Source of the DNA: Candidatus Aenigmatarchaeota archaeon
GTDB lineage: Archaea > Aenigmatarchaeota > Aenigmatarchaeia > GW2011-AR5
Length of the DNA stretch: 64,000 bases
Reading direction: 5' to 3'
Assembly (NCBI GenBank): GCA_016187335.1
Contig: JACPJW010000001.1
Location: 4,547-68,546, forward strand
Part shown: positions 2,332-33,719 of the stretch, one piece after another
Layout: every line of letters starts with the position of its first letter
Numbering within the stretch: position 1 is the stretch's first letter
Notes under the pieces: generated by a model
Databases searched by the model: none
What the model was told of the DNA's origin: nothing
What the model saw: the letters and a program-made list of their open reading frames with translations, nothing else
Made by a program: the position numbers and the translations under genes

Positions 2332-3594
2332 TCAGCCGCATGTGCATGTTCCGTCCGATGCGACCCCGGAGGAGCATGTCCCGAAATTGCCGCCCGATTT
2401 GACGCATATTACCTTCCCGGTTCCGTCTCCCGAGACGCCGTCCGCTCTGATTTCGCCTGCAACGTCAAGCATGGCGTCGGGCGTCGTGTCGCCGATACCT
2501 ACATTACCGTTCTTGTCTATCCGCACGGCACTCACAGATCCAGCTCCGCCAGTAGTTCCATTATGCACGTTGATCTGGAGCTCGCCTTCATCCCCATCCG
2601 AACCCGGTTGGATTGCCAGTAATGAGACCGAGCGGAACAGAGTCGCGGCATCGCTATTCAGGTTGTTAAAAACGAGAAAGCCGAATGGATCTCCAGCCCC
2701 GCCCGGAGTTCCAGCAACGTTGAAGCTCGCCCTTGAAGAGCCGCCGTGCATCACGAAGACGTTCTTGTCATTGGTAATGGCTGTGGGGTCATTCGTCCCG
2801 ACAGCCAGTATGGAGTTGGCGTCGTCCCAATAGAACTTCGTGATGTTCTGCCTAAAAATCCCGTTTGCTCCTGAAAAAATGACTGAACCTGACGTGAATG
2901 TGGGATTCTGGATTGTTGATGCATTTAGGAATGTCGTAGCGTTGATACCCCCGCCGTGCACTATCACATTCGCGTTCTGGAAATCCACGTAAGTCCCGCT
3001 GCTCGCGTCCCCTATCCTGTTCACCTCGCCGCCCGTGCTGCGGAATTTCGTGGGGCCGCTTACAAGCTCGCTGTTAACGTAAATGCACATCCAGTAGTCG
3101 CGGTTGAAGTCCAGCCACAGTGTATCGCCTTCGCCAAGCGTGAGCGAGAACGTGCCGGAAGATATCGAGCTGCTGAACGTCTCGTCGTAGATGACGCCGG
3201 CGGTGCACGATGTCGCGTTGCTGACCTTGATCCTGACGGACCCGCTCGACAGCGCAGTGCCGTCCGTCTTGTTCGTCGCCTTGCCCTGCACGGACATAGT
3301 TGTCGGCTGGGAGTGATGCTCAAGCAGGTCTCCTTGCAGGGCAGAAGATATTCCCAACTGGGAGTTTTGAAGAGACTGGGCAAACCCGGCGTTTATCCGG
3401 CCTGGTGCAGAAGAATCCTTCGCCTCTGTCTGCAGCTGGTATTTAGTATCTTCATGTTCGGCATTGTCGTATTGCGAATCACTGAGAACGAGAGCAGCGG
3501 TAAAAACATAGACCGTAAGCATAAATACGGTTTTCAGAATAATTGAGCGCCCTTTGTTCATGCTTGCGCGCCCGGCCTTACGTCGCAGTCCCAT
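2332..3594 (-). CDS. Secreted surface protein with tail-fibre-like C-terminal motif
   Basis: N-terminal TM/signal. Gly/Ser/Thr/Asn-rich beta-helix-like repeats. C-terminal block IDKNGNVGIGDTTPDAMLDVAG resembles the NGNVGIGTTxPxxxLxV motif of tail-fibre domain proteins. C-terminal Cys cluster. Confidence 0.5.
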   Translation of the reverse strand: MGLRRKAGRASMNKGRSIILKTVFMLTVYVFTAALVLSDSQYDNAEHEDTKYQLQTEAKDSSAPGRINAGFAQSLQNSQLGISSALQGDLLEHHSQPTTMSVQGKATNKTDGTALSSGSVRIKVSNATSCTAGVIYDETFSSSISSGTFSLTLGEGDTLWLDFNRDYWMCIYVNSELVSGPTKFRSTGGEVNRIGDASSGTYVDFQNANVIVHGGGINATTFLNASTIQNPTFTSGSVIFSGANGIFRQNITKFYWDDANSILAVGTNDPTAITNDKNVFVMHGGSSRASFNVAGTPGGAGDPFGFLVFNNLNSDAATLFRSVSLLAIQPGSDGDEGELQINVHNGTTGGAGSVSAVRIDKNGNVGIGDTTPDAMLDVAGEIRADGVSGDGTGKVICVKSGGNFGTCSSGVASDGTCTCG

Positions 3595-3759
3595 TAGTTT
3601 TAACAGACGCTAATAAACTTCTTAAAGTAATTCATCTGGAAAATTTCTACTTTCATGTAGTCAAACGGGGCAGAGGAAGGTAAACCAAAACCGTTTTGAT
3701 GCTCAGAAAGCAAAGCTTTCCTTTCTGGCATTGCCAAAATCCCTTGGATTTTGCGCAAT

Positions 3760-3885: not shown

Positions 3886-6536
3886 CACGCCATCATCCTG
3901 TAGAAATGGTGCGAATAGTACTTCTTTATCTCAACAACCACAAAAATCAGAGTCATGACAAATAAAATCTCCAGCCAGTTCTGCGCATCCAGCGGCACCG
4001 TGTCAAATATCGCGTTGAAGAAAGGCACGTAGACTATCATTAAATGCAGCAGCACGGATGACGCTATTGCCAGGAGCATTTTCTTGTTGCCGAACGGGTT
4101 TATTTTAAGCAGGCTTTTTTCCGTGCGCAGGTTGAGCGCCACGGCCATCTCGGCCATCACCAGCGTTGTGAATGCGACTGTGCGCGCCTTTGCTTCGCCG
4201 TTTCTGCCTAATTCAATGTAGAACATTGCTAAAGTGCCCAGAGCCATTATGAGCCCTACCGCTATGATGACAAACATGACTCTTTTGTTCAGCACCTTGT
4301 CTTTGGGATTTCTCGGCGGCCGGTTCATTACGTCAGCTTCCGGCGGCTCGAATCCCAGCGCAAGCGCGGGAAGGCCGTCAGTGACGAGGTTCAGCCACAA
4401 AAGCTGTATCGGGAAAAGCGGCAGCGGAAGATTGATGAGAATTGACGTGAATATCACGATGACTTCGCCGATGTTGCAGCTAAGCAGGTATAAAACAAAC
4501 TTGCGGATGTTGTCGTAAATCGTGCGCCCTTCTTCTATGGCTGTGACTATGGTCGCAAAATTGTCGTCGGTGAGGACCATGTCCGAAGCTTCCTTTGTTA
4601 CGTCGGTTCCTGTTATGCCCATGGCTATTCCGATATCAGAGCGCTTCAGCGCAGGCGCGTCGTTGACGCCGTCGCCGGTCATCGCCACAACATGGCCCTT
4701 CTTTTTCAGCGCATCAGTGATGCGGACTTTATGTTCCGGCGACACGCGGGCATAGACAGTTACCTCTTCAACAATATCCTCGAATTTTTTGTCGTCCAGG
4801 TCGTCCAGCTCTTCTCCCGTGAGCGCCAGCGAGCCGCTGCCGAGCATTCCCAGTTCTTTGGCAATGGCCACGGCCGTTTCCCTGTGGTCGCCTGTTATCA
4901 TGACAACCTTCATTCCTGCGCGCTTGCATTTGTCTATGGCATCAGCCACCTCCGGCCTTGGCGGGTCTATCATTGCCTGCAGCCCTATGAAAATCAGCTT
5001 GCTTTCTTCTGGTTTTTCTCCCGGCTTCAGCTTCTTTGTCGCAAAGCCGAGGACGCGCAGCGCGTTTTTCGCAAAAGAAGAGTTTGCAAGGAGTATTTCC
5101 TTCCTGTCCTTTTCCGTAAGCCTGTCAATCTTTCCGTCGCGCATTATCGCAACGCATTTTTTCAGGACTTCTTCGGGCGCGCCCTTTGTGTACATTGTCC
5201 TGCCGCTGATGTCGTAAACAACGCTCATCATCTTCCTTTCGGATTCAAAGGGTATTTCCCCGGTCCGCCTGTATTTGTCACGCAGGTCGTGCACGCCGGC
5301 CTTGGATGCCGATACGAGCAGCGCAGCTTCCGTAGGGTCGCCGATGACCCTGTCGCCGATGACAGCGTCGTTGCAGAGCTTTCCTGTTTCCAGAAGCATC
5401 CTTGCCGTTTCGCTTATTTTTATTTCCTTTCCGCTTCGCATGAACGCTCCTTTCGTGTCGTAGCCTTCGCCCGTAACGTCAATGACCTCGCCGTCAGCAT
5501 AGAGCTTTTTCACGGTCATCTGGCTCATCGTGAGCGTTCCAGTTTTGTCGCTGCATACAACTGTCGTTGATCCCAGCGTTTCCGCGGAAGGCAGTTTGCG
5601 GATTATTGCGTTCTTTTTCGCCATTTTCGTCAGCCCGATAGCCAGCGTTATCGTCACGATGGCCGGGAGCCCTTCCGGTATCGCTGCTACAGCCAGGGAA
5701 ACGGCGATAAGGAACATTTCCAGGGCGTCCCTTCCCTGAAGGAACCCGGCAAAGAAAACAACGGCGCATATTGCAAGTATGATTATTCCCAGGCCCTTCC
5801 CTAATTCTTCCAGCTTCTGCTGCAGCGGGGTTTTTATTTCCTGCTCCTGCTGCAGCAGCGAGGCAATCTTTCCGAATTCCGTTCTCATGCCTGTTTCAAC
5901 AACGAGAGCCTTGCAGCTGCCGTAAACTATGGTTGTACCTGAGAAAAGCATGTTCTTCCTGTCGGCTACGCTCTTGCCGTCTTTCATCGCGCTGGTGTTT
6001 TTTGGAACAGGGAGCGATTCTCCCGTCAGGACGGCCTCATCCGCCTTCAGGTTCAGTGCTTCCGTAATCCTGCAGTCCGCCGGAACCTTGTCGCCGACTT
6101 TAAGGATGATCAGATCGCCGGGAACAAGCTCCCTTGAGTTTATCTCTGAAACCTTTCCGTCGCGTATGACCTCGCTTTTCGGCGCGGCCATGCGCTTCAA
6201 TGCCTCCAGGGCCTTCTCGGCGCGCCTTTCCTGGATGAAGCCCAGGATTGCATTAAGAAAAACGATGGCCATGATAACCGAAGCGTCCAGAAGCTCGCCG
6301 AGATAAGCGGAAACCGCTGATGCTGCTATCAGGATAAGGACAAGGACGTTGTTGAACTGCCGCAAAAACTGGATCCACGAGGGCGTTCTTTTCTTCTCGC
6401 GTATCTCGTTATGCCCGTACCTTACGAGCCTTTTCGCAACTTCTTCATCGCTCAAGCCCTTTGGCGAGGATTCCAGGGCGCCGAAAGCTTCGTCTGCAGC
6501 AATCTTATGCCATTCTTTCGTCATCATCGCAAGCAC
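3882..6536 (-). CDS. Cation-transporting P-type ATPase, type II (Ca2+-ATPase-like)
   Basis: Motifs TGES, DKTGTLT, PEGLPA, TGDGVNDAPAL and a 10-TM topology. Confidence 0.93.
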   Translation of the reverse strand: MLAMMTKEWHKIAADEAFGALESSPKGLSDEEVAKRLVRYGHNEIREKKRTPSWIQFLRQFNNVLVLILIAASAVSAYLGELLDASVIMAIVFLNAILGFIQERRAEKALEALKRMAAPKSEVIRDGKVSEINSRELVPGDLIILKVGDKVPADCRITEALNLKADEAVLTGESLPVPKNTSAMKDGKSVADRKNMLFSGTTIVYGSCKALVVETGMRTEFGKIASLLQQEQEIKTPLQQKLEELGKGLGIIILAICAVVFFAGFLQGRDALEMFLIAVSLAVAAIPEGLPAIVTITLAIGLTKMAKKNAIIRKLPSAETLGSTTVVCSDKTGTLTMSQMTVKKLYADGEVIDVTGEGYDTKGAFMRSGKEIKISETARMLLETGKLCNDAVIGDRVIGDPTEAALLVSASKAGVHDLRDKYRRTGEIPFESERKMMSVVYDISGRTMYTKGAPEEVLKKCVAIMRDGKIDRLTEKDRKEILLANSSFAKNALRVLGFATKKLKPGEKPEESKLIFIGLQAMIDPPRPEVADAIDKCKRAGMKVVMITGDHRETAVAIAKELGMLGSGSLALTGEELDDLDDKKFEDIVEEVTVYARVSPEHKVRITDALKKKGHVVAMTGDGVNDAPALKRSDIGIAMGITGTDVTKEASDMVLTDDNFATIVTAIEEGRTIYDNIRKFVLYLLSCNIGEVIVIFTSILINLPLPLFPIQLLWLNLVTDGLPALALGFEPPEADVMNRPPRNPKDKVLNKRVMFVIIAVGLIMALGTLAMFYIELGRNGEAKARTVAFTTLVMAEMAVALNLRTEKSLLKINPFGNKKMLLAIASSVLLHLMIVYVPFFNAIFDTVPLDAQNWLEILFVMTLIFVVVEIKKYYSHHFYRMMAW

Positions 6537-22646: not shown

Positions 22647-22901
22647 TCAATCTTCTATAGCGAATCTTATTTTTTCTCTTATGGGTATTTTCCTTATATC
22701 CGTTGGAAGTTCTTCCCCGTCTTTTACAAGGCTCTCGCAATAAAGCCTTATGGCTTCCCTTACGTTTTTCTTTGCTTCAGCCAGCGTGTCGCCTTCCGTT
22801 ATGCAACCCGGCAGAGAAGGAACCAAAACAGTATAGCCGCCTTCCGGTTGAGGCTCAAATATAACAGTGTATTCCAGATACTTCATTTTTTTCTTTCCCA
22901 C
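22647..22901 (-). CDS. hicB: HicB-family antitoxin
   Basis: YTVIFEPQPEGGYTVLVPSLPGCITEGDTLAEAKKNVREAIRLY, the HicB/UPF0150 signature. Confidence 0.75.
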   Translation of the reverse strand: MGKKKMKYLEYTVIFEPQPEGGYTVLVPSLPGCITEGDTLAEAKKNVREAIRLYCESLVKDGEELPTDIRKIPIREKIRFAIED

Positions 22902-26464: not shown

Positions 26465-27048
26465 AGCACTTCCCCCTCGAACCTCAGCACTTCCGTATCG
26501 GGCCCTATCTTGTCGAGGAAATCATCAACTGACCTGTAAACTCCGTCAGGAAAGATGTGCACGGCCATGAAAAGGTATCTTCCCTTTTCCTTTGGCGCAA
26601 AGCCCGCCACGTTGGCCGTGTGGAAGTCCTCGCCAAGCAGGGATTCAGTGCCGCATGAAATCCTGTTCACTAAATAAGTTCCCTCGAAATGCTCGTGCTG
26701 CGCAAATCTCTGCGGATAATTCACTTTCTCGACAGGCCCCCTGACAACGCAGACGTAATAAGTGTCATAATTAGCAAGGCGCTTCAGGTTCGCCTGAACC
26801 GAAAACAGCTCGCCCGGCTTGAAGCTGCTGCCCTTAAGCTGAACGAAATTGCCGTCCAGACCGCAAACAACGTAATCGCGGCCGCTGGTCAGCAGTTCGC
26901 TGGTGCACTGGTCGATGAAGGCGAGGATTTTCGCTTCCGTCAGCGGCGCTGCAGCAACAGGAGCGGATGCAGCGGGCTGTTTGATAGAAAATACAGCCAC
27001 GGCGGCAACGGCGGCGAGCACAAGAACCAATGCAGCGCCTTGTTTCAT
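26461..27048 (-). CDS. Secreted hypothetical protein
   Basis: Signal peptide MKQGAALVLVLAAVAAVAV. Stop overlaps the start of 24074..26464 by 4 nt, so likely co-transcribed. Confidence 0.45.
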   Translation of the reverse strand: MKQGAALVLVLAAVAAVAVFSIKQPAASAPVAAAPLTEAKILAFIDQCTSELLTSGRDYVVCGLDGNFVQLKGSSFKPGELFSVQANLKRLANYDTYYVCVVRGPVEKVNYPQRFAQHEHFEGTYLVNRISCGTESLLGEDFHTANVAGFAPKEKGRYLFMAVHIFPDGVYRSVDDFLDKIGPDTEVLRFEGEVL

Positions 27049-27267
27049 AAAACAACAAACCTCTTTTAATCAAACTTTGAAAATCGAATGACGCATAAAG
27101 TGCGTCTGTCTGCCTCAAAGTTTGGTTTCATGCTTTATTATTACACAGGGCGGTATAAAAATTTGTTTTGCGCTGCCTGACAGCGAAGAAAGTGCGTAAT
27201 TCCCCTGTAAAGCGCTGCCAAAAACAGAAAATGCAACTTATTTTAATCCCGTTCGGGAATAGTTAAT

Positions 27268-27927
27268 ATGCCCTACGAAGTCGAAGGCATGAGCGAGCAT
27301 CCTACCAAAAGGGCGATAGAATTTGTGCTTTTCCTGATAATCGTTTCCGCCGCGCTGACGCTCTGGTTCAACGCCGAGGCGCAGAAGCAGGAAAACGCGC
27401 CGGTATTTCCTGCCACAGGCAACGATGAGATAAACAGGATCCTGGCCACGAAGAACAACAACCTCGGCAAGAACATGAACGAGATATGGATGAGCAACTG
27501 CCGCGTTCCGAAAGAGCGCTCGCTCGTCAACCTTGTGCACATCAGCAAAAAAAGCGGCGGTTATGAAATCAGCTGCGAGTTCGGGCCTTCCTATGATTAC
27601 GTGTCGTACAATGTCGGCGGTTCGACCCCTTCCGTTTACGCCGGCTGGATCGCGGACAGGAAATGCGACGGGGAAATCGCGGCGGAAATCGACAAGGCCG
27701 TGAGGGAAGTGAACAGCTGCCCCGTGCTGCTGAGGGAAAAAATACCCGACGACCTGGCGGATTACTACGTGGTCTCGCTTTACTGCAGGAGCAATTTCAA
27801 GAAGGAATACGTGATATCCACCCGGGATATTCCAAAATGCGTGGAGCCGCTTTTGTCAGGTAATGTCGTGATACCGATTTCATACGACAGCGTCGTTGAC
27901 GTCAGGACGGGGAGGGCTTGGATTTAG
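27268..27927 (+). CDS. Membrane-anchored hypothetical protein
   Basis: Single N-terminal TM then an extracytoplasmic domain. C-terminal ~50 aa are duplicated at 28620-28784. Confidence 0.45.
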   Translation: MPYEVEGMSEHPTKRAIEFVLFLIIVSAALTLWFNAEAQKQENAPVFPATGNDEINRILATKNNNLGKNMNEIWMSNCRVPKERSLVNLVHISKKSGGYEISCEFGPSYDYVSYNVGGSTPSVYAGWIADRKCDGEIAAEIDKAVREVNSCPVLLREKIPDDLADYYVVSLYCRSNFKKEYVISTRDIPKCVEPLLSGNVVIPISYDSVVDVRTGRAWI

Positions 27928-27965
27928 AGATTAAAGCATATAATACTGGAAATTGAAATAAAATT

Positions 27966-28418
27966 ATGCCAGTTTCAGGACAATTTCCAAAACACCATAT
28001 AGACACATCTGTAATTATAGAGCCTGAAAATACCGAAGACGGAAGGTTCTGTAAACGTTATCTACAAAAACTCAATTATAATTATACCGGTATTTTATCA
28101 TTTCCAGTATTAAGCGAGATTTTTGTTATTCTCAATTCTTTGGAGGATTTCAATGAAAGATACGATTTTATAGAACCTCTGCTGGCTATGGTTAAATCAA
28201 GAAATATAGAGTTCTACGCTCCGAAAGATATAGGAAATCTTCTTAACAGCATTAAATCAACTGAGAAAAGAATTGGTTTTGTAGACAGCGAAATAGTTGC
28301 CTGCGCAGCTGAAGATAAAGCTGATGCCTTGATAACCCTTGATAGAGATTTGATAAACAACAAGAACCTGGAAAAGTTATTGAGAATAAGGATACTTCAT
28401 CCTAAAGATTTGCTGTAA
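27966..28418 (+). CDS. PIN-domain ribonuclease (VapC-like), no adjacent antitoxin
   Basis: Acidic PIN residues (IDTSVII...AAEDKADALITLDRDL). AT-rich relative to flanks. Confidence 0.65.
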   Translation: MPVSGQFPKHHIDTSVIIEPENTEDGRFCKRYLQKLNYNYTGILSFPVLSEIFVILNSLEDFNERYDFIEPLLAMVKSRNIEFYAPKDIGNLLNSIKSTEKRIGFVDSEIVACAAEDKADALITLDRDLINNKNLEKLLRIRILHPKDLL

Positions 28419-28577
28419 TTTATTTGTTATACTTTTTGTGCAATGACTTGTGTATGGCTTTGGCTTTTTCAAATACGCCCTTCGCTTCCGCCTTTCTGCG
28501 CAACATTTCGGCTCTCTTTTCTTCGTCTGTCATAATAGCACTAACCATATATCAGGCCAGAGAATATTTAAGGCTTC

Positions 28578-28784
28578 TTGCAAAAACATCAGAACCCTCC
28601 GCCCGCATCCAGCGAGCGGTCGGACTACCAAGTTTTCACGCTTTACTGCAGAGATTTCAAGAAAGAGTACTTGTCCTTGCGCAGCGACATACCTCAGTGC
28701 GTCTCGAAGATATTTGACAACGTCATTGTGGATGTGACAGTTACGGACGTCGTTGACGTCAGGACGGGAAGGTTCTGGGTGTAG
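28578..28784 (+). pseudogene. Duplicated 3' fragment of gene 27268..27927
   Basis: Translation ...YCRDFKKEYLSLRSDIPQCV...VDVRTGRFWV parallels the C-terminus ...YCRSNFKKEYVISTRDIPKCV...VDVRTGRAWI of the upstream gene. Nucleotide similarity is visible from 27770-27927 versus 28620-28784. Confidence 0.55.
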
Positions 28785-28793
28785 ATAAAGACA

Positions 28794-29906
28794 CTAAGCC
28801 GCTCTGTAAAGATTAATGTATTTTCCTTCTTCGATTCCGGTGACAACAATGCTTCTTTCTGGAACAAGCAAGCCGTCGCTTCTTTCCGAAAAGCCAAAAA
28901 GCTGCTCTAAAAATCTTCCTGCCTCTTCTAGAAATTCTCTTCGGCCCTCCTGCCTGTACAAGTCGGGCCTGCAAGGGTTTTTGAAAGGCGGAAAATATCT
29001 TGGCTCTGCTCTGAATGTTTTCTGTTCAAGGAAATTCTTTAAATCTCGTTTTTTCGGATCTAAATCTATTTTTCCTTTTTTACCAGACAGATAGGCATGA
29101 GCCCATTCTACTGCCCTGACTACTCGCGGCGTATATACAGATTCAGAATCAAAGTCTTCTCCTTTCTTGAATGAGGGATCCGTTCCCAATTCAAGTTCAT
29201 TAACTCTTTCTTCCGTTTCTTTCGCAACATTCTCAAAATCTACGTTAGGATTACTGCCATCATAGATAACAATGTTCCCTTTATCATCCCTAACAAAAAG
29301 CAGGAAGGGATTTACAGTCCTGACGACGTTGTATCTTTTGTTAGGATAACCTTTGTCTGTCCATTTTTGGTATCTTCCTCCCCGAAACCACGTTGGTACG
29401 ATACAGCCGAAATGAAGAACGTAATCTCCTTTTCTTGTACCTGTATTGCCGCCTTCACCTAGTTGAGTTGTTGGGGAAACATTTTGACCTAAAAATACGT
29501 TCCATGAATTCAAGTGCTGGTAATCTGTAAGATGTCCTAAACCGTGGCCAACTGTTACACTTTTGATTGAACCAAAACGGGTTTTGTAAGATGGTGGATC
29601 ATCTCCCCGATAAACCACAATCCCATTTCCTGCCGCCATAACTGGCGTGTAAGGCGGGCGCTCCCTTACTTTAAAATCTACTCCTCCCGGATCTATACCT
29701 AAATGGTTTTCATAACCCCCGCCTTCTATTATTACCGGTTGTCCTGGAACACATGCAGCAGGAGAAGAATAAGCGGATGGATTTCCAATAGCCTTTATAT
29801 CGGCATAAGACGGTCTAACCCCAAGTAAAGTTATACCATCGCCGATACTGCCTGCGACCAAGATTTTGACAACTTCTCTGCGCGTATACGAAGGACCTGA
29901 ACTCAT
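28794..29906 (-). CDS. M23-family metallopeptidase (LytM-like), Tat/Sec-exported
   Basis: RREVVKILVAG twin-Arg-like signal. HLGIDPGG (HxxxD) ... GHGLGHLTDYQHL ... GNTGTRKGDYVLHFG M23 motifs. Confidence 0.7.
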   Translation of the reverse strand: MSSGPSYTRREVVKILVAGSIGDGITLLGVRPSYADIKAIGNPSAYSSPAACVPGQPVIIEGGGYENHLGIDPGGVDFKVRERPPYTPVMAAGNGIVVYRGDDPPSYKTRFGSIKSVTVGHGLGHLTDYQHLNSWNVFLGQNVSPTTQLGEGGNTGTRKGDYVLHFGCIVPTWFRGGRYQKWTDKGYPNKRYNVVRTVNPFLLFVRDDKGNIVIYDGSNPNVDFENVAKETEERVNELELGTDPSFKKGEDFDSESVYTPRVVRAVEWAHAYLSGKKGKIDLDPKKRDLKNFLEQKTFRAEPRYFPPFKNPCRPDLYRQEGRREFLEEAGRFLEQLFGFSERSDGLLVPERSIVVTGIEEGKYINLYRAA

Positions 29907-29976
29907 AGATAATATTTATTTTTCATTACATTTAAAGGTTTCGTTTTTAATTACTTAAAAGAAGTAACGTTTTAAA

Positions 29977-30627
29977 TTATGGTTCACCACCACTGGTAAG
30001 TTGCTCACCTGTGCCACCGCCGGTTCCGCCAGAATTAGTGCCCTTTCCTCCTCCGCCAGCTGGCCCGCTCCCGGTCTGTATTTGAGGATCTACATTCCCT
30101 CCTCCGCTTGGCCCCCCTTGCTCGCTCCCGCCCCCCGGGCACCCCGTAAACGTCACCGTGCATGACCTGCCGCGCTGCACCACTGGGCCTGTGTCCGTGC
30201 AGCCGGTGGAGTAGCCCCTAATGTCGGCTTCAGAACCTGATCTTACTAGCTGAGCACCCCACCCATTGTCCGTCTCGAATGCTTGGCAGTCGCCGCTGCC
30301 GCATTGCTGCATAGCATAAGCAGCGCTTGCGCACGTTCCTGCCCTGTCGCAGCCGCCTTGGTCTTTGAACGATTCATATCCTGTTTCTGTTATTTGTGAA
30401 CCTCCACCAAACGAGCTGACAACAGCATTAGCAACCGCGCTTATTGCATCAACAATAGCATCAAAAAAATCTCTTACTGCGTCCCAAAACCCGAATTTAA
30501 CAAATTTTTTCCCGGATAGGTCTTCCGTATTTGTATTAAAAAGGAAAGATGAAACTGCACCTATTGCGTATATGAAAGAAGTCATGACAAGCAATGCCAC
30601 GAGAGAGGCAAGAAACTCGTTTCTCAT
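29977..30627 (-). CDS. Secreted Gly-rich Cys-containing protein
   Basis: Signal/TM at the N-terminus. Eight Cys in the middle. C-terminal GGxGG low-complexity tail. Confidence 0.4.
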   Translation of the reverse strand: MRNEFLASLVALLVMTSFIYAIGAVSSFLFNTNTEDLSGKKFVKFGFWDAVRDFFDAIVDAISAVANAVVSSFGGGSQITETGYESFKDQGGCDRAGTCASAAYAMQQCGSGDCQAFETDNGWGAQLVRSGSEADIRGYSTGCTDTGPVVQRGRSCTVTFTGCPGGGSEQGGPSGGGNVDPQIQTGSGPAGGGGKGTNSGGTGGGTGEQLTSGGEP

Positions 30628-30690: not shown

Positions 30691-31827
30691 TTAATTTCTT
30701 CTGAAATCACTTTCATAAATTTGGTAATATTTACCTCTTTCAAGGGCATCCATAATTTCCCATATTGTTTTACCTAACCTTTCTGTTCTAAGCGACTCAA
30801 TAAAATTCCTGCCTGCTGGTGTATGAGCTTTACGACCTTGTGGCGGTATTCCTTTCCTTTCGGGTGCAAGAAAATACCATATGCTAAGATCGTAATTATT
30901 ACGGGTCCTAGGACTTAACCATATGTCTGTAGCATATCCAGCCACATCGTATCTTATTCCTTCTATTGTCACCCTCCATCTTCCTTTAGGTGGTGGATCA
31001 AATTTTATAATTTGTAAATTAGCTCTGTTTTCATCTATTGGCAGTCTAACTCCTTCTAATCCCTTGATTCTACTCACATCAATTGTAGCGTAAATATTCA
31101 AATTTGGTGGATCGGCAGGGTCGTATTTGTTTTTAATCACTCTTATCAATAATTCGCCTTGGCCTATTGCCCTCAAAGAAAGCGGTTTCAGTTTCCCTGA
31201 ACCTGGAAAATAAACATCGTATCCTTTGCATGTGGCTGCAATTTCGCCCTTTCTTACGCCTTCTAAATAAGGTTCAGCAAAACCAGAAAATTTCAATGCT
31301 TGCGGGTTTCTGCGCAAAAGTTCACTAAGTTTAGAAAAGTCCCATCTTTCCGGTGTTGTTGAGCAAGGGAAAATAGGTGCCTCTTCCTGCGGTGTCGGTT
31401 GAGTCGTTACAGGCTGCTGCCCGTCTGCCGGCTGCTGGTCCTGTGCCGCTCCGGGCGGCGCTGGAGGAGGCGCATCCGTGCTCTGGCTTGCGCTAATATT
31501 CGGTGCGTAAGAAAGCGCTCCAAGCAATGCGATCGCTGTAAGTTCTGTTGCAAGCCGGGTTCTTTGGTTATATCCTCTTTTCATTACGCTTGCTTCCACA
31601 TTTTCCGGGTCCACAACATTCTGCTGCACATACCTTAAAGCGACATCACGCTGCTTTAACAGGTATTGTCCTGTCGCACTGGCACGATTCATTGCGGCAC
31701 TAAATTGGTCTCGTGCATAGCCTCGTGCGGCATTCCAGTAGCTTGCCAATGAACGACTTCCAGAAGTAACCCTGCCCATTATTTCTGTCCTTTGCTGCTG
31801 CTCCGTCGGCCTTAATACTATTCCCAT
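30691..31827 (-). CDS. Membrane-anchored protein with Pro-rich linker (paralog family 3)
   Basis: Cytoplasmic N-terminal domain, TM (LATELTAIALLGALSYAPNI), linker DAPPPAPPGAAQDQQPADGQQPVTTQPTPQEE, then a ~220 aa C-terminal domain. ~120 nt are near-identical to the paralog 31863..32987. Confidence 0.55.
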   Translation of the reverse strand: MGIVLRPTEQQQRTEIMGRVTSGSRSLASYWNAARGYARDQFSAAMNRASATGQYLLKQRDVALRYVQQNVVDPENVEASVMKRGYNQRTRLATELTAIALLGALSYAPNISASQSTDAPPPAPPGAAQDQQPADGQQPVTTQPTPQEEAPIFPCSTTPERWDFSKLSELLRRNPQALKFSGFAEPYLEGVRKGEIAATCKGYDVYFPGSGKLKPLSLRAIGQGELLIRVIKNKYDPADPPNLNIYATIDVSRIKGLEGVRLPIDENRANLQIIKFDPPPKGRWRVTIEGIRYDVAGYATDIWLSPRTRNNYDLSIWYFLAPERKGIPPQGRKAHTPAGRNFIESLRTERLGKTIWEIMDALERGKYYQIYESDFRRN

Positions 31828-31862
31828 CTTTTCAATGTTCATCTTATTTAGTTTTTTGTTAA

Positions 31863-32987
31863 TTAATGTTTAAATTCGTCAGAATGACGACCATAGTAAT
31901 TGCCTTTATTCATTTTATCTATAACTTCCCACATAATATCTCCAAATATTCTTGATTTATCAATATTTTTAAAATTCCTGCCAGCCGGTGTGTAGCCCTT
32001 GAACCCTTGCACGGGTGGTATCATTCCGGATTTAAAATACAATATACCAAAATCAAATTTGTTGGATGTTTTGGGGTTGAGCCACACATCTATTCCAAAT
32101 TCGGTTATATCGTATCTTATTCCTCCGAATGTTATTGGCCACCTTCCTTGAACAGATGGATCATATTTGTATACTCTTAAGTTAGGTCTATTTTCATTTA
32201 TTGGAAAGTTTATTTGCTCTAAGCCTCTAATTCCTTTTACAGTTATTACGAAATCAGTATTCAAATTCGTAGGGGCATCTGGGTAGTACTTATTTCCAAT
32301 GACATTCATCAACAATTCCCCATCGGGCCCAATAGCTCTGAGTGGGAAAGGCTTTTGCCCTCTTCTCAGGAAAGAAATATCATAACCTATGCACGTTGCT
32401 GTAGTTTCTCCTGATTCAACAGCTTTTACATAAGGCGCGGCATGACTGGAAAATTTCAGTACTCTCTGTCTTCTTGGACCTAAAAATAATTCTTTGAATT
32501 TAGGGTTGCTCGCATTCCATGTTTCTCCTGATTTGGCGCAAGGGAAAATAGTTCCTTCTTCCTGCGGTGCCGGTTGAGTCGTTACAGGCTGCTGCCCGTC
32601 TGCCGGAGGCTGGTCCTGCCCCGCTCCCGGTGGTGCAGGCGGCGGCGCATCCGTGCCCTGGCTTGCGCTAATATTCGGTGCGTAAAGCATTAGACCGGCT
32701 AAACCTGTGGCAAGCGCTCCGGCGCGTCTTTTTTGTGATGGTCTGTTCCGCAGTACGTCTCCTTCAACTTGAGCTGCCAGCTTCAATCCCGATAAATAAT
32801 CAGAAACAGCTTTGCTTTGCCTTCCGGCGTATTTTGAAAAAGTGTCCGCTTTATCTAAGGCATAAGTTCCAGCAGTTCTGGCTTGGCTTGACAAGTAACC
32901 TCTCACTGCGCCTAAGTAACCTCTTGGATTTCCGCTGACGATTTCTGCCCTGACCTGCTCTTCTGGCATTCGTATACTTATTCCCAT
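31863..32987 (-). CDS. Membrane-anchored protein with Pro-rich linker (paralog family 3)
   Basis: Same architecture and same linker sequence as 30691..31827. Confidence 0.55.
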   Translation of the reverse strand: MGISIRMPEEQVRAEIVSGNPRGYLGAVRGYLSSQARTAGTYALDKADTFSKYAGRQSKAVSDYLSGLKLAAQVEGDVLRNRPSQKRRAGALATGLAGLMLYAPNISASQGTDAPPPAPPGAGQDQPPADGQQPVTTQPAPQEEGTIFPCAKSGETWNASNPKFKELFLGPRRQRVLKFSSHAAPYVKAVESGETTATCIGYDISFLRRGQKPFPLRAIGPDGELLMNVIGNKYYPDAPTNLNTDFVITVKGIRGLEQINFPINENRPNLRVYKYDPSVQGRWPITFGGIRYDITEFGIDVWLNPKTSNKFDFGILYFKSGMIPPVQGFKGYTPAGRNFKNIDKSRIFGDIMWEVIDKMNKGNYYGRHSDEFKH

Positions 32988-33097: not shown

Positions 33098-33469
33098 TTA
33101 GACCTTCAGCGGAATTACTGGGATGCCCAGTTTCCCGTATTTCCTGTCAGAGCTTATTATGGGCTGGCCTTCTGCCAGGACGGCGTTGAAGGCGTCAAAA
33201 ACGCCCAGATTGTTATTCTTTATGTGATTTACAATTTCCATGCCCTGCTTTATCGTCATTCCTTTTATGTCAGCTATCTGGAAAATGGAAGCGACGATAT
33301 TTTCCATGTCCAAATTCTCCCTTTTCGCGACAAGTAGGAGTCCGGCCAGCGTAAGGACAGAAGTTTCTATACTGCCTTTGTATTCCTCGTAAATCTTCTT
33401 GGCGCCCGTCTTCAGCCAGTCTTCCTTTTTTATCATGGCGAGAAAAAAATCCGTGTCCGCGTAAACCAT
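33098..33469 (-). CDS. vapC: PIN-domain toxin VapC
   Basis: MVYADTDFFLA N-terminal PIN signature. 123 aa. Confidence 0.7.
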   Translation of the reverse strand: MVYADTDFFLAMIKKEDWLKTGAKKIYEEYKGSIETSVLTLAGLLLVAKRENLDMENIVASIFQIADIKGMTIKQGMEIVNHIKNNNLGVFDAFNAVLAEGQPIISSDRKYGKLGIPVIPLKV

Positions 33470-33470
33470 G

Positions 33471-33719
33471 CTATCTTCCTGCCTCTTTCAGCGCTTCCTC
33501 GTACGCCTCCTTTCGGAGCTGCTTTATCGTCTTGCCCTTTAGCTTTTCCCCTTCCTTCTGCAGTGTTTTTACCGGGTCCTTTGGCAGCGGCTTCAGCAGT
33601 ATCCCTTCTTTTTTGATTGGGATTACAACAAATTCGTCGGTTCCGAATTCTTCAACAACATCCCTGCTTAATGTAATTCTCCTTCTTTCGTCCATTCTTG
33701 TTTTTGTCATGCTTTTCAC
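33471..33719 (-). CDS. vapB: AbrB/SpoVT-type antitoxin VapB
   Basis: RRITLSRDVVEEFG swapped-hairpin motif. Stop abuts the vapC start. Confidence 0.65.
   Translation of the reverse strand: MKSMTKTRMDERRRITLSRDVVEEFGTDEFVVIPIKKEGILLKPLPKDPVKTLQKEGEKLKGKTIKQLRKEAYEEALKEAGR

Follow-up and report, generated by a model that had tools for sequence, protein, structure and literature searches.

A VapC-like PIN-domain gene with a conserved convergent mini-gene beside a duplicated gene end in Candidatus Aenigmarchaeota

A gene for a PIN-domain nuclease was analysed within a 64-kb stretch of the 918-kb contig JACPJW010000001.1 (the window), which comes from a 0.9-Mb metagenome-assembled genome (MAG) of Candidatus Aenigmarchaeota, a DPANN archaeon. 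The PIN gene lies between the 3′ end of an intact gene, here called gene A, and a diverged second copy of that end, and it is met at its own 3′ end by a convergent mini-gene. On sequence comparison, the PIN protein is probably a toxin and the mini-protein its antitoxin. With moderate confidence, a joint reading is proposed for the whole locus: the two genes, each with its own promoter, form a compact, self-contained and horizontally mobile module; the mini-protein acts as the antitoxin of that module; and the duplicated gene end is a recombination scar that joins two versions of a variable slot. The probable toxin is of a known kind, VapC, and what is new is its non-canonical, convergent mini-partner, which recurs at about 37 independent loci. 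The scar itself is ordinary, if nicely resolved, and the module of PIN gene and convergent mini-protein is the more interesting result.

The PIN nuclease and its convergent mini-protein

The PIN protein barely passes the Pfam PIN threshold (25.0 bits, cut-off 23.6), and a sequence search of the PDB with the PIN family gave no match; the fold search alone succeeded. An AlphaFold model with a predicted local distance difference test (pLDDT) score of 94.5 found its best Foldseek matches among FitB and VapC toxins (TM score 0.62–0.76, E down to 8e-06), including the VapC toxins of Shigella, Mycobacterium, Rickettsia and Haemophilus. The acidic residues D13, E51, D107 and D126 are unchanged in 28 homologs, and both the fold and these four active-site residues mark the protein as a member of the PIN-domain group. 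NCBI labels it 'VapC family toxin', and 42 relatives with 46–71% identity were found in the protein database. The initial annotation had placed an AT-rich PIN/VapC-like gene between the two copies of the gene end; the GC content of 34.5%, the Pfam match and the FitB/VapC fold all bear this out.

About 60 loci with relatives of the PIN gene were collected, and their named source genomes are nearly all Aenigmarchaeota MAGs. At all 37 non-redundant loci with downstream sequence, a convergent open reading frame (ORF) of 27–42 aa has its stop at the PIN stop codon or no more than 8 nt away from it. At 29 of the 37 the two frames overlap, most commonly by 11 nt, and in the window their stop codons lie 1 nt apart. 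This arrangement, in which each gene runs up against the end of the other, forces the 3′ ends of their transcripts to overlap. No intact PIN gene without the mini-ORF was found among the loci with readable downstream sequence. The PIN gene had initially been described as 'solo', with no cognate antitoxin, a description that gives way to a conserved, coding, convergent gene, 37 aa long in the window, at every intact readable locus. The longest ORF of this mini-gene in the window reaches 28548 (42 aa), and the ATG at 28531–28533 is favoured as its start by the homologs and by the position of the TATA box.

On the pattern of its substitutions, the mini-gene is protein-coding and under strong purifying selection. 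Aligned mini-peptides follow the consensus M-[TS]-x-[DE]-E-K-x-L-E-x-L-Y-K-K-x-x-K-x-G-[VI]-F-E-K-x-K... Differences at codon positions 1, 2 and 3 amount to 30, 22.5 and 47%, the proportion of non-synonymous differences (pN) is 0.09–0.25 while that of synonymous differences (pS) is saturated, and the resulting ratio of non-synonymous to synonymous rates (dN/dS) is about 0.06–0.16. In most loci, stops interrupt all of the alternative frames but one, on the opposite strand. This coding signal identifies the mini-ORF as a protein gene and not merely as antisense RNA.

The mini-gene is preceded by a TATA box of the archaeal consensus (Table 1). Across loci, a TATA box with no more than one mismatch lies 22–39 nt 5′ of the mini-gene ATG in 25 of 34 cases, against 3 of 34 for the control interval (Fisher P = 6.5e-08). 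For the PIN gene, a consensus TATA box at the corresponding position occurs at 10/32 loci and at 7/32 controls; the absence of enrichment suggests that the PIN promoter is weak or variable. From the position of the TATA-like box in the window, the PIN mRNA is predicted to be leaderless or near-leaderless. A perfect 13-nt inverted repeat, TAATACTGGAAAT / ATTTCCAGTATTA (27941–27953 and 28100–28112), has one arm in the PIN promoter region and the other 135 nt into the PIN gene's coding sequence, and may reflect either chance or regulatory pairing.

Several properties tie the two proteins together. Pairwise identities among PIN proteins rise and fall with those among mini-peptides (r = 0.74, Mantel P = 0.0005), and the two proteins carry complementary charges, +5.7 for the mini-protein (pI 10) and −4.2 for the PIN protein (pI 5.4). 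The mini-peptide is modelled as a two-helix hairpin (pLDDT 82.8). At five loci (L025, L045, L052, L057 and L058) the PIN gene has decayed through frameshifts, stops or deletions and the mini-ORF is intact; at two others (L022 and L056) both are damaged. Such an asymmetry of decay would be expected of a toxin and its antidote. In L022, the decayed PIN C-terminus gives way, at about 4490–4715, to sequence that includes a repeated element (…GLQSAG… / …GLQSAD… in translation); this may be a small repeat or a miniature inverted-repeat transposable element whose insertion took out the mini-ORF.

It is proposed that the mini-protein, produced from a strong consensus promoter, would neutralise the acidic PIN protein through direct binding, and that the 3′-overlapping transcripts may add antisense control. 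The mini-ORF might instead have no antitoxin role, control being purely antisense in the manner of type I toxin–antitoxin (TA) systems, or there may be no TA system at all, as with a housekeeping RNase and a small cofactor or regulator. A convergent, 3′-overlapping layout typifies some type I systems, and the mini-protein lacks any DNA-binding domain and was matched to no antitoxin family. This explanation is nevertheless considered unlikely: purifying selection at the protein level and saturated synonymous change oppose an incidental peptide or an RNA-only role, and the PIN fold is closest to the VapC and FitB toxins. A housekeeping function is opposed by the patchy, multi-context, sometimes tandem and low-GC cassettes and by the decaying PIN genes.

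The mini-protein is seldom called as a gene product: it appears in just 4 clusters among 5.8 billion proteins and is not in the NCBI record. Searches of Pfam, NCBIfam, PADLOC and PDB gave no consistent match for it, and literature searches turned up no account of a PIN gene with a convergent mini-protein.

Table 1. Positions of the features discussed, numbered along the window
Feature	Position	Strand	Description
Gene A	27268-27927	+	Intact 219-aa ORF; N-terminal membrane helix, several Cys; upstream neighbour of the slot
Left copy of the gene A end	27757-27927	+	Last 56 codons and stop of gene A
Exact 21-nt core, CGTCGTTGACGTCAGGACGGG	27891-27911 = 28748-28768	+	Repeat family D1; candidate crossover or gene-conversion tract
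Two-gene cassette	27928-28582	.	About 655 nt, 34.5% GC; PIN promoter, PIN gene, mini-gene and its promoter
TATA-like box of the PIN gene, ATATAATA	27938-27945	+	28 nt 5′ of the PIN ATG; putative promoter, read from the sequence
PIN-domain nuclease gene	27966-28418	+	150 aa, VapC-like; probable toxin
Convergent mini-gene, MTDEEKRAEMLRRKAEAKGVFEKAKAIHKSLHKKYNK	28420-28533	-	37 aa, pI 10, predicted two-helix hairpin; probable antitoxin
TATA box of the mini-gene, TTAAATAT	28564-28571	-	Archaeal consensus; read from the sequence and tested across loci
Relic of a Gly-rich protein gene	28583-28618	-	Last 11 codons and stop, SDRSLDAGGGF*
Right copy of the gene A end	28620-28784	+	5′-truncated relic; 54 codons and stop of a gene A homolog
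M23 peptidase gene	28794-29906	-	42.9% GC, against about 53–55% in flanking genes
Gly-rich secreted protein gene	29977-30627	-	Downstream neighbour of the slot

Cassette limits, mobility and related systems

The cassette is closely bounded on both sides: gene A ends at its left limit, and at its right limit a short relic of a Gly-rich protein gene has its stop codon. In the window, gene A terminates 9 nt before the PIN TATA box begins and 38 nt before the PIN ATG, and the TATA box and transcription factor B recognition element of the mini-gene lie about 11 nt from the stop codon of the relic. Cassettes whose PIN proteins are 67–71% identical to that of the window were found in no fewer than five other contexts, with unrelated genes on either side, and the GC content of the cassette is lower than that of its flanks at 22 of 28 loci; gene A has 53.6% GC and the whole window 47.3%. 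Tandem arrays with a period of about 726–745 nt and up to 3 units per contig occur in L049, L051 and L052, which belong to one subfamily with peptides ending in …KKDW. The insertion of a small toxin cassette between a gene's 3′ end and its diverged copy, as first suggested, is supported, the cassette being read as foreign.

Direct repeats that include the 3′ end and stop codon of a neighbouring gene flank other cassettes as well, namely in L033 (59 nt, 95%), L026 (38 nt, 100%) and L016 (29 nt). With the window included, such locus-specific repeats are present at 4 of 33 loci and at 3 of 299 pseudo-cassette control positions (P = 0.002), and all three control matches come from a single tandem paralog pair. 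Flanking repeats scoring at least 31 bits were found at just 7 of the 33 loci, and L060, L063 and L071 had none. As a general property of the cassette the repeats were accordingly weakened, given that L051 is a tandem array and that L046 and L050 share a motif, which leaves the four locus-specific cases. As most cassettes lack them, the repeats are an occasional by-product of acquisition and not an obligatory signature. The shared motif, TTGTTCAATGCATTAAATTCAATCAG, is 30–36 nt long and brackets cassettes in L050 (three copies: 225–254, 1052–1081 and 3689–3718) and in L046 (184–219 and 925–960). It also precedes a second PIN copy and is absent from the window; it could be a subfamily-specific cassette end or recombination site.

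The module resembles the VapBC (FitAB) type II systems in its PIN toxin of about 150 aa with four acidic residues and in being a small, mobile and patchily distributed pair of genes. It differs in several respects. The PIN gene has no co-directional vapB upstream, and no conserved co-directional ORF was found upstream of PIN at the related loci. Its partner is instead convergent, 27–42 aa long and served by its own promoter, with overlapping or abutting stop codons, and carries no AbrB, ribbon–helix–helix, PHD or helix–turn–helix DNA-binding domain. Furthermore, the PIN family has no sequence match in the PDB and a marginal Pfam PIN score. A canonical vapBC operon is present in the same window (33098–33719, minus strand), with a 123-aa PIN protein just below the Pfam cut-off (22.8 bits) and, upstream on the same strand, an 82-aa AbrB/SpoVT-like ORF (…RRRITLSRDVVEEFG…). 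The genome therefore has both the standard and the convergent layout.

Convergent genes with overlapping 3′ ends are known from type I TA systems such as txpA/RatA and bsrG/SR4 in Bacillus subtilis, in which an untranslated RNA serves as antitoxin to a small membrane peptide. The present genes are likewise transcribed towards each other from separate promoters with a 3′ overlap. In contrast to those systems, the candidate toxin is a soluble enzyme of 150 aa and its partner is translated, as the low dN/dS of the mini-ORF indicates. Tentatively, the PIN family may represent an undescribed TA architecture, found mostly in Aenigmarchaeota MAGs, in which a VapC-type toxin is neutralised by a convergent antitoxin that is about 35 aa long, lacks a DNA-binding domain and has a strong promoter of its own, with an added antisense layer; the unit of 0.65 kb, complete with its promoters, would spread between related genomes by short-homology recombination (about 20–60 nt) at gene 3′ ends, without a dedicated recombinase.

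Other mobile elements share single features with the locus. As in elements that integrate at gene 3′ ends by a Campbell-type crossover and bring a replacement 3′ end with them, leaving attL and attR sites that share an identical core, the target gene is intact, its displaced 3′ end lies at the far junction, and an exact 21-nt core is flanked by diverged similarity. An identical core and an intact gene A are not specific to an integrase, because homologous single-crossover integration yields both. The 0.86-kb unit encodes no integrase, with neither a tyrosine nor a serine recombinase between the repeats, and the repeats are locus-specific (29–170 nt), with an orientation to the target that differs between the window and L033. 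Scans of the window for tRNA genes and Rfam families gave no match, so the cassette is not a tRNA-targeting element. Integron cassettes often carry TA modules, and small TA cassettes in variable slots, in tandem arrays in some relatives, are reminiscent of them; unlike in integrons, the flanking repeats here are pieces of neighbouring genes. No attC-like palindrome was present among the inverted repeats of 26500–30000 and no IntI or other integrase nearby, in a search that used no dedicated attC model and scanned only part of the window's genes. A transposon or insertion sequence would be expected to leave a short, exact target-site duplication of fixed length; the locus instead has a duplicate of about 165–170 nt that is 62% identical, no terminal inverted repeats and no transposase.

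Origin of the duplicated gene end

The two copies of the gene A end share 28 of 56 residues (50%; BLASTP E 1e-09) and 103 of 165 aligned nucleotide positions (62%). The alignment contains two 3-nt indels that preserve the frame, and it runs in frame to a common TAG stop codon. By tblastn, the sole other match of each copy in the window is its counterpart (E 9e-15 with the fragment as query, 6e-06 the other way), and as direct repeats they are spaced 857 nt apart. The initial annotation had claimed a diverged repeat of the gene end and had staked the claim on a formal alignment of 27770–27927 with 28620–28784; that alignment upheld the homology and contained an exact 21-nt block. A start of the right copy at 28613 was considered and moved to 28620, the similarity at 28613–28619 being part of the Gly-rich gene relic. 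The reading frame of the right copy has no ATG or GTG start and opens solely with a TTG at 28578. Of the two possibilities first raised for this fragment, an ORF remnant or an antitoxin-like peptide, it is best read as the former. The frame (28578–28784, plus strand) has been called as a protein of 68 aa by at least one gene caller (P0065, in a 50%-identity representative library); P0065 is a spurious database 'protein' derived from the relic of gene A.

With an exhaustive HMMER search, an ortholog of gene A that is 61% identical over its full length (P0049) was located on contig L072. This contig is syntenic with the window, at 70–73% nucleotide identity through a 796-aa gene, a 195-aa gene and gene A and once more in the Gly-rich gene. 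In a three-way comparison, the ortholog, the left copy and the right copy are about equidistant (59.5, 63 and 61.7% nucleotide identity), and the right copy is therefore not a recent copy of the left. The 21-nt identical run is longer than this divergence predicts (P = 0.0014 by column shuffle, 0.008 by codon shuffle). Within it, the two copies agree at 7 synonymous sites, and the ortholog departs from them at 4 synonymous sites and one non-synonymous site. The core is thus free of constraint at the nucleotide level, and the identity of the two copies there reflects shared ancestry. Informative sites form a mosaic along the alignment (Table 2), in which head and tail differ (Fisher P = 0.015); in the tail, read off the alignment, the right copy matches the ortholog at 17 of 18 positions and the left copy at 10 of 18.

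Table 2. Informative sites in the three-way comparison of the gene A ortholog (P0049), the left copy and the right copy
Segment	Ortholog = left	Ortholog = right	Left = right
First 12 codons	5	1	1
Middle 33 codons	16	19	18
24-nt core region	0	1	5
Last 3 codons	0	5	0

A second relic lies at the joint. The sequence between the cassette and the right copy corresponds to PDRSLDAGGGH*, the C-terminus of the L072 Gly-rich protein at the slot edge. With that C-terminus as query, tblastn ranks it first among all matches in the window (9/9 identical, E 0.01), and its local DNA alignment score of 48 compares with 20 ± 3.9 (maximum 37) for shuffled sequences. The C-terminus of the Gly-rich gene now present is unlike both the relic and L072. 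The resulting order in the window is gene A, cassette, Gly-rich gene relic, gene A relic, M23 peptidase gene and Gly-rich gene, and the two relics join by their 5′-truncated ends near 28619–28622. This arrangement cannot be produced by target-site duplication.

In L072, the slot after the gene A ortholog is filled by another TA-like pair (2874–3664), a UPF0175 gene and a gene with a precomputed DUF3368 match; the UPF0175 assignment was confirmed, and a Pfam scan at E <= 0.01 did not reproduce DUF3368. No PIN cassette, no duplicate and no M23 gene were found in L072. A search of relatives for the uninterrupted locus, as first proposed, is therefore answered in part: the syntenic contig lacks the duplicate, but its slot is occupied by a different TA pair. 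Together with the PIN cassette of the window, two differing TA pairs have been found in one slot, which looks like a hotspot for TA modules. The M23 gene also lies inside the slot, its stop codon 9 nt from that of the gene A relic. No relative of the peptidase was found in L072 or in any other fetched locus, and the gene appears to be a second variable insert.

The reading proposed here places the cassette in a slot of variable content, flanked by two surface-protein genes that converge on it: gene A and the Gly-rich protein gene. DNA of a related lineage with another version of the slot would have been joined to the resident version, leaving behind the relics of both genes. In the favoured form of this model, a patch consisting of the 3′ end of the donor's gene A, the cassette and the 3′ end of the donor's Gly-rich gene would have circularised and entered by a single crossover within the 21-nt core. 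The patch would comprise codons −55 to stop of the donor's gene A, the cassette and the last 11 codons of the donor's Gly-rich gene, so that the present order is a circular permutation of the donor's. A crossover in the core would leave gene A intact and create the flanking direct repeats. This is the simplest account, and it is preferred with a confidence that falls somewhat short of even. The crossover is more likely to be host-mediated short-homology recombination, because no integrase is present and the repeats are locus-specific, with no fixed att site.

Homology-facilitated illegitimate recombination between two slot haplotypes, with linear DNA, would require neither a circle nor a crossover in the core. 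In this process, a patch of DNA from a related genome becomes fixed by way of a single illegitimate joint, where truncated relics of genes remain; it is reportedly well documented in naturally transformable bacteria, and to our knowledge it has been described experimentally in bacteria and not in DPANN archaea. Either the 5′ part of the resident gene A would have given way to a donor segment of gene A, cassette and the first bit of a Gly-rich gene, or a donor segment of a gene A 3′ end, M23 gene and Gly-rich gene would have been joined inside the resident Gly-rich gene. Both versions need one homologous anchor and one illegitimate joint at about 28619–28622, and both yield the same final gene order and the same joint between the relics. 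The absence of the M23 gene from L072, its GC content below that of the flanks, and a present Gly-rich C-terminus that matches neither L072 nor the relic also suit such an exchange. The process alone does not explain the exact core shared by the two copies, for which the ortholog shows no nucleotide constraint, nor the switch in the ortholog's grouping between head and tail, so that a later short gene conversion would be needed. For these reasons the linear route is regarded as somewhat improbable.

Another conceivable origin is a duplication of the target on insertion, by a transposition-like staggered cut or by replication slippage, after which the right copy would have decayed neutrally; the near-identical repeats of 29–59 nt in L033, L026 and L016 do resemble fresh duplications. 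Random-substitution simulation leaves neutral decay compatible with the amino acid identity (P = 0.25) and with the missing stop codons (P = 0.16). This origin is very improbable for the window: the right copy is as distant from the left as the ortholog of another organism is, its tail resembles that ortholog more closely than the left tail does, and an exact core is unexpected in a decaying copy. The indels are in frame and differences by codon position run 24/11/27, with second positions spared, and dN/dS is 0.36; the dN/dS and the stop-codon simulation on the two copies are suggestive only. Furthermore, target duplication does not explain the Gly-rich gene relic, there are no terminal inverted repeats at 27928/28582 and no transposase, and repeat lengths vary from 29 to about 170 nt. 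The 'partial target duplication' of the initial annotation is accordingly set aside, given the equal distances to the ortholog and the Gly-rich gene relic beside the duplicate.

The initial annotation had offered recombination between paralogs as its other explanation. Recombination stands, and chance similarity does not; the two partners have the look of allelic versions of one locus in related lineages, not of paralogs. An ancient tandem pair of gene A paralogs, the second of which later lost its 5′ part by deletion or to the cassette, is the least probable origin considered. A divergence of 50% in amino acids is paralog-like, and tandem paralogs exist nearby (30691–31842 and 31863–32987), but the syntenic L072 is single-copy and none of 41 family members has two complete tandem copies. 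The intact copy is followed directly by the cassette and the truncated copy comes downstream of it, the Gly-rich gene relic separating cassette and fragment, and neither the core nor the mosaic pattern would be expected. The nearby paralogs, on the minus strand, encode 383 and 374 aa, match no Pfam family and have nearly identical stretches in common (169 nt at 86% and 63 nt at 94% among them); short-read contigs break at 31425.

Several observations weigh against the joint reading of mobile cassette, antitoxin and recombination scar. The antitoxin role rests on genomic association, and no antitoxin family was matched by the mini-protein. With respect to the scar, a dN/dS of 0.36 and the lack of stop codons are compatible with one copy decaying neutrally, and the mosaic is built on few sites, the five tail sites falling in 2 codons and representing about 2 events. 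No recombinase ORF was found in the insert, where the PIN gene and the mini-ORF are the only ORFs, and about 26 of 33 cassettes have no flanking repeats. An empty site or donor allele was not found, the locus being present on nine metagenome contigs that are all 100% identical to the window, and no PIN relative was found on IMG/VR viral contigs.

Neighbouring genes and significance of the locus

Gene A corresponds to NCBI locus HYW26_00145, and its product matches no Pfam or NCBIfam family. Its neighbourhood codes for secreted and membrane proteins, among them the 796-aa protein and the 195-aa protein, the latter weakly matching an archaeal pilin N-terminus below the Pfam cut-off. Distant homologs of gene A are followed by a DsbA gene and have no cassette. 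A further possible TA pair lies 5 kb upstream, where a gene of 84 aa (about 22647–22901, minus strand, equivalent to L001 621–875) with a precomputed match to a HicB-like antitoxin stands beside an 89-aa ORF.

The locus offers a sequence-level view of how a DPANN genome of 0.9 Mb reshapes a variable slot that lies between genes for surface proteins: related organisms hold differing TA pairs in one slot, and gene-end relics record the joints. Annotation pipelines label the PIN protein as a VapC toxin, yet make it look like an orphan, because its partner of about 35 aa is almost never called. 'Solo' toxins in small archaeal genomes may therefore often be artefacts of missed mini-genes on the opposite strand. 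If the mini-protein is an antitoxin, two rules of type II systems would be broken, namely the operon organisation and autoregulation through a DNA-binding antitoxin, and the mini-protein would constitute a minimal, naturally occurring peptide that inhibits a VapC nuclease.

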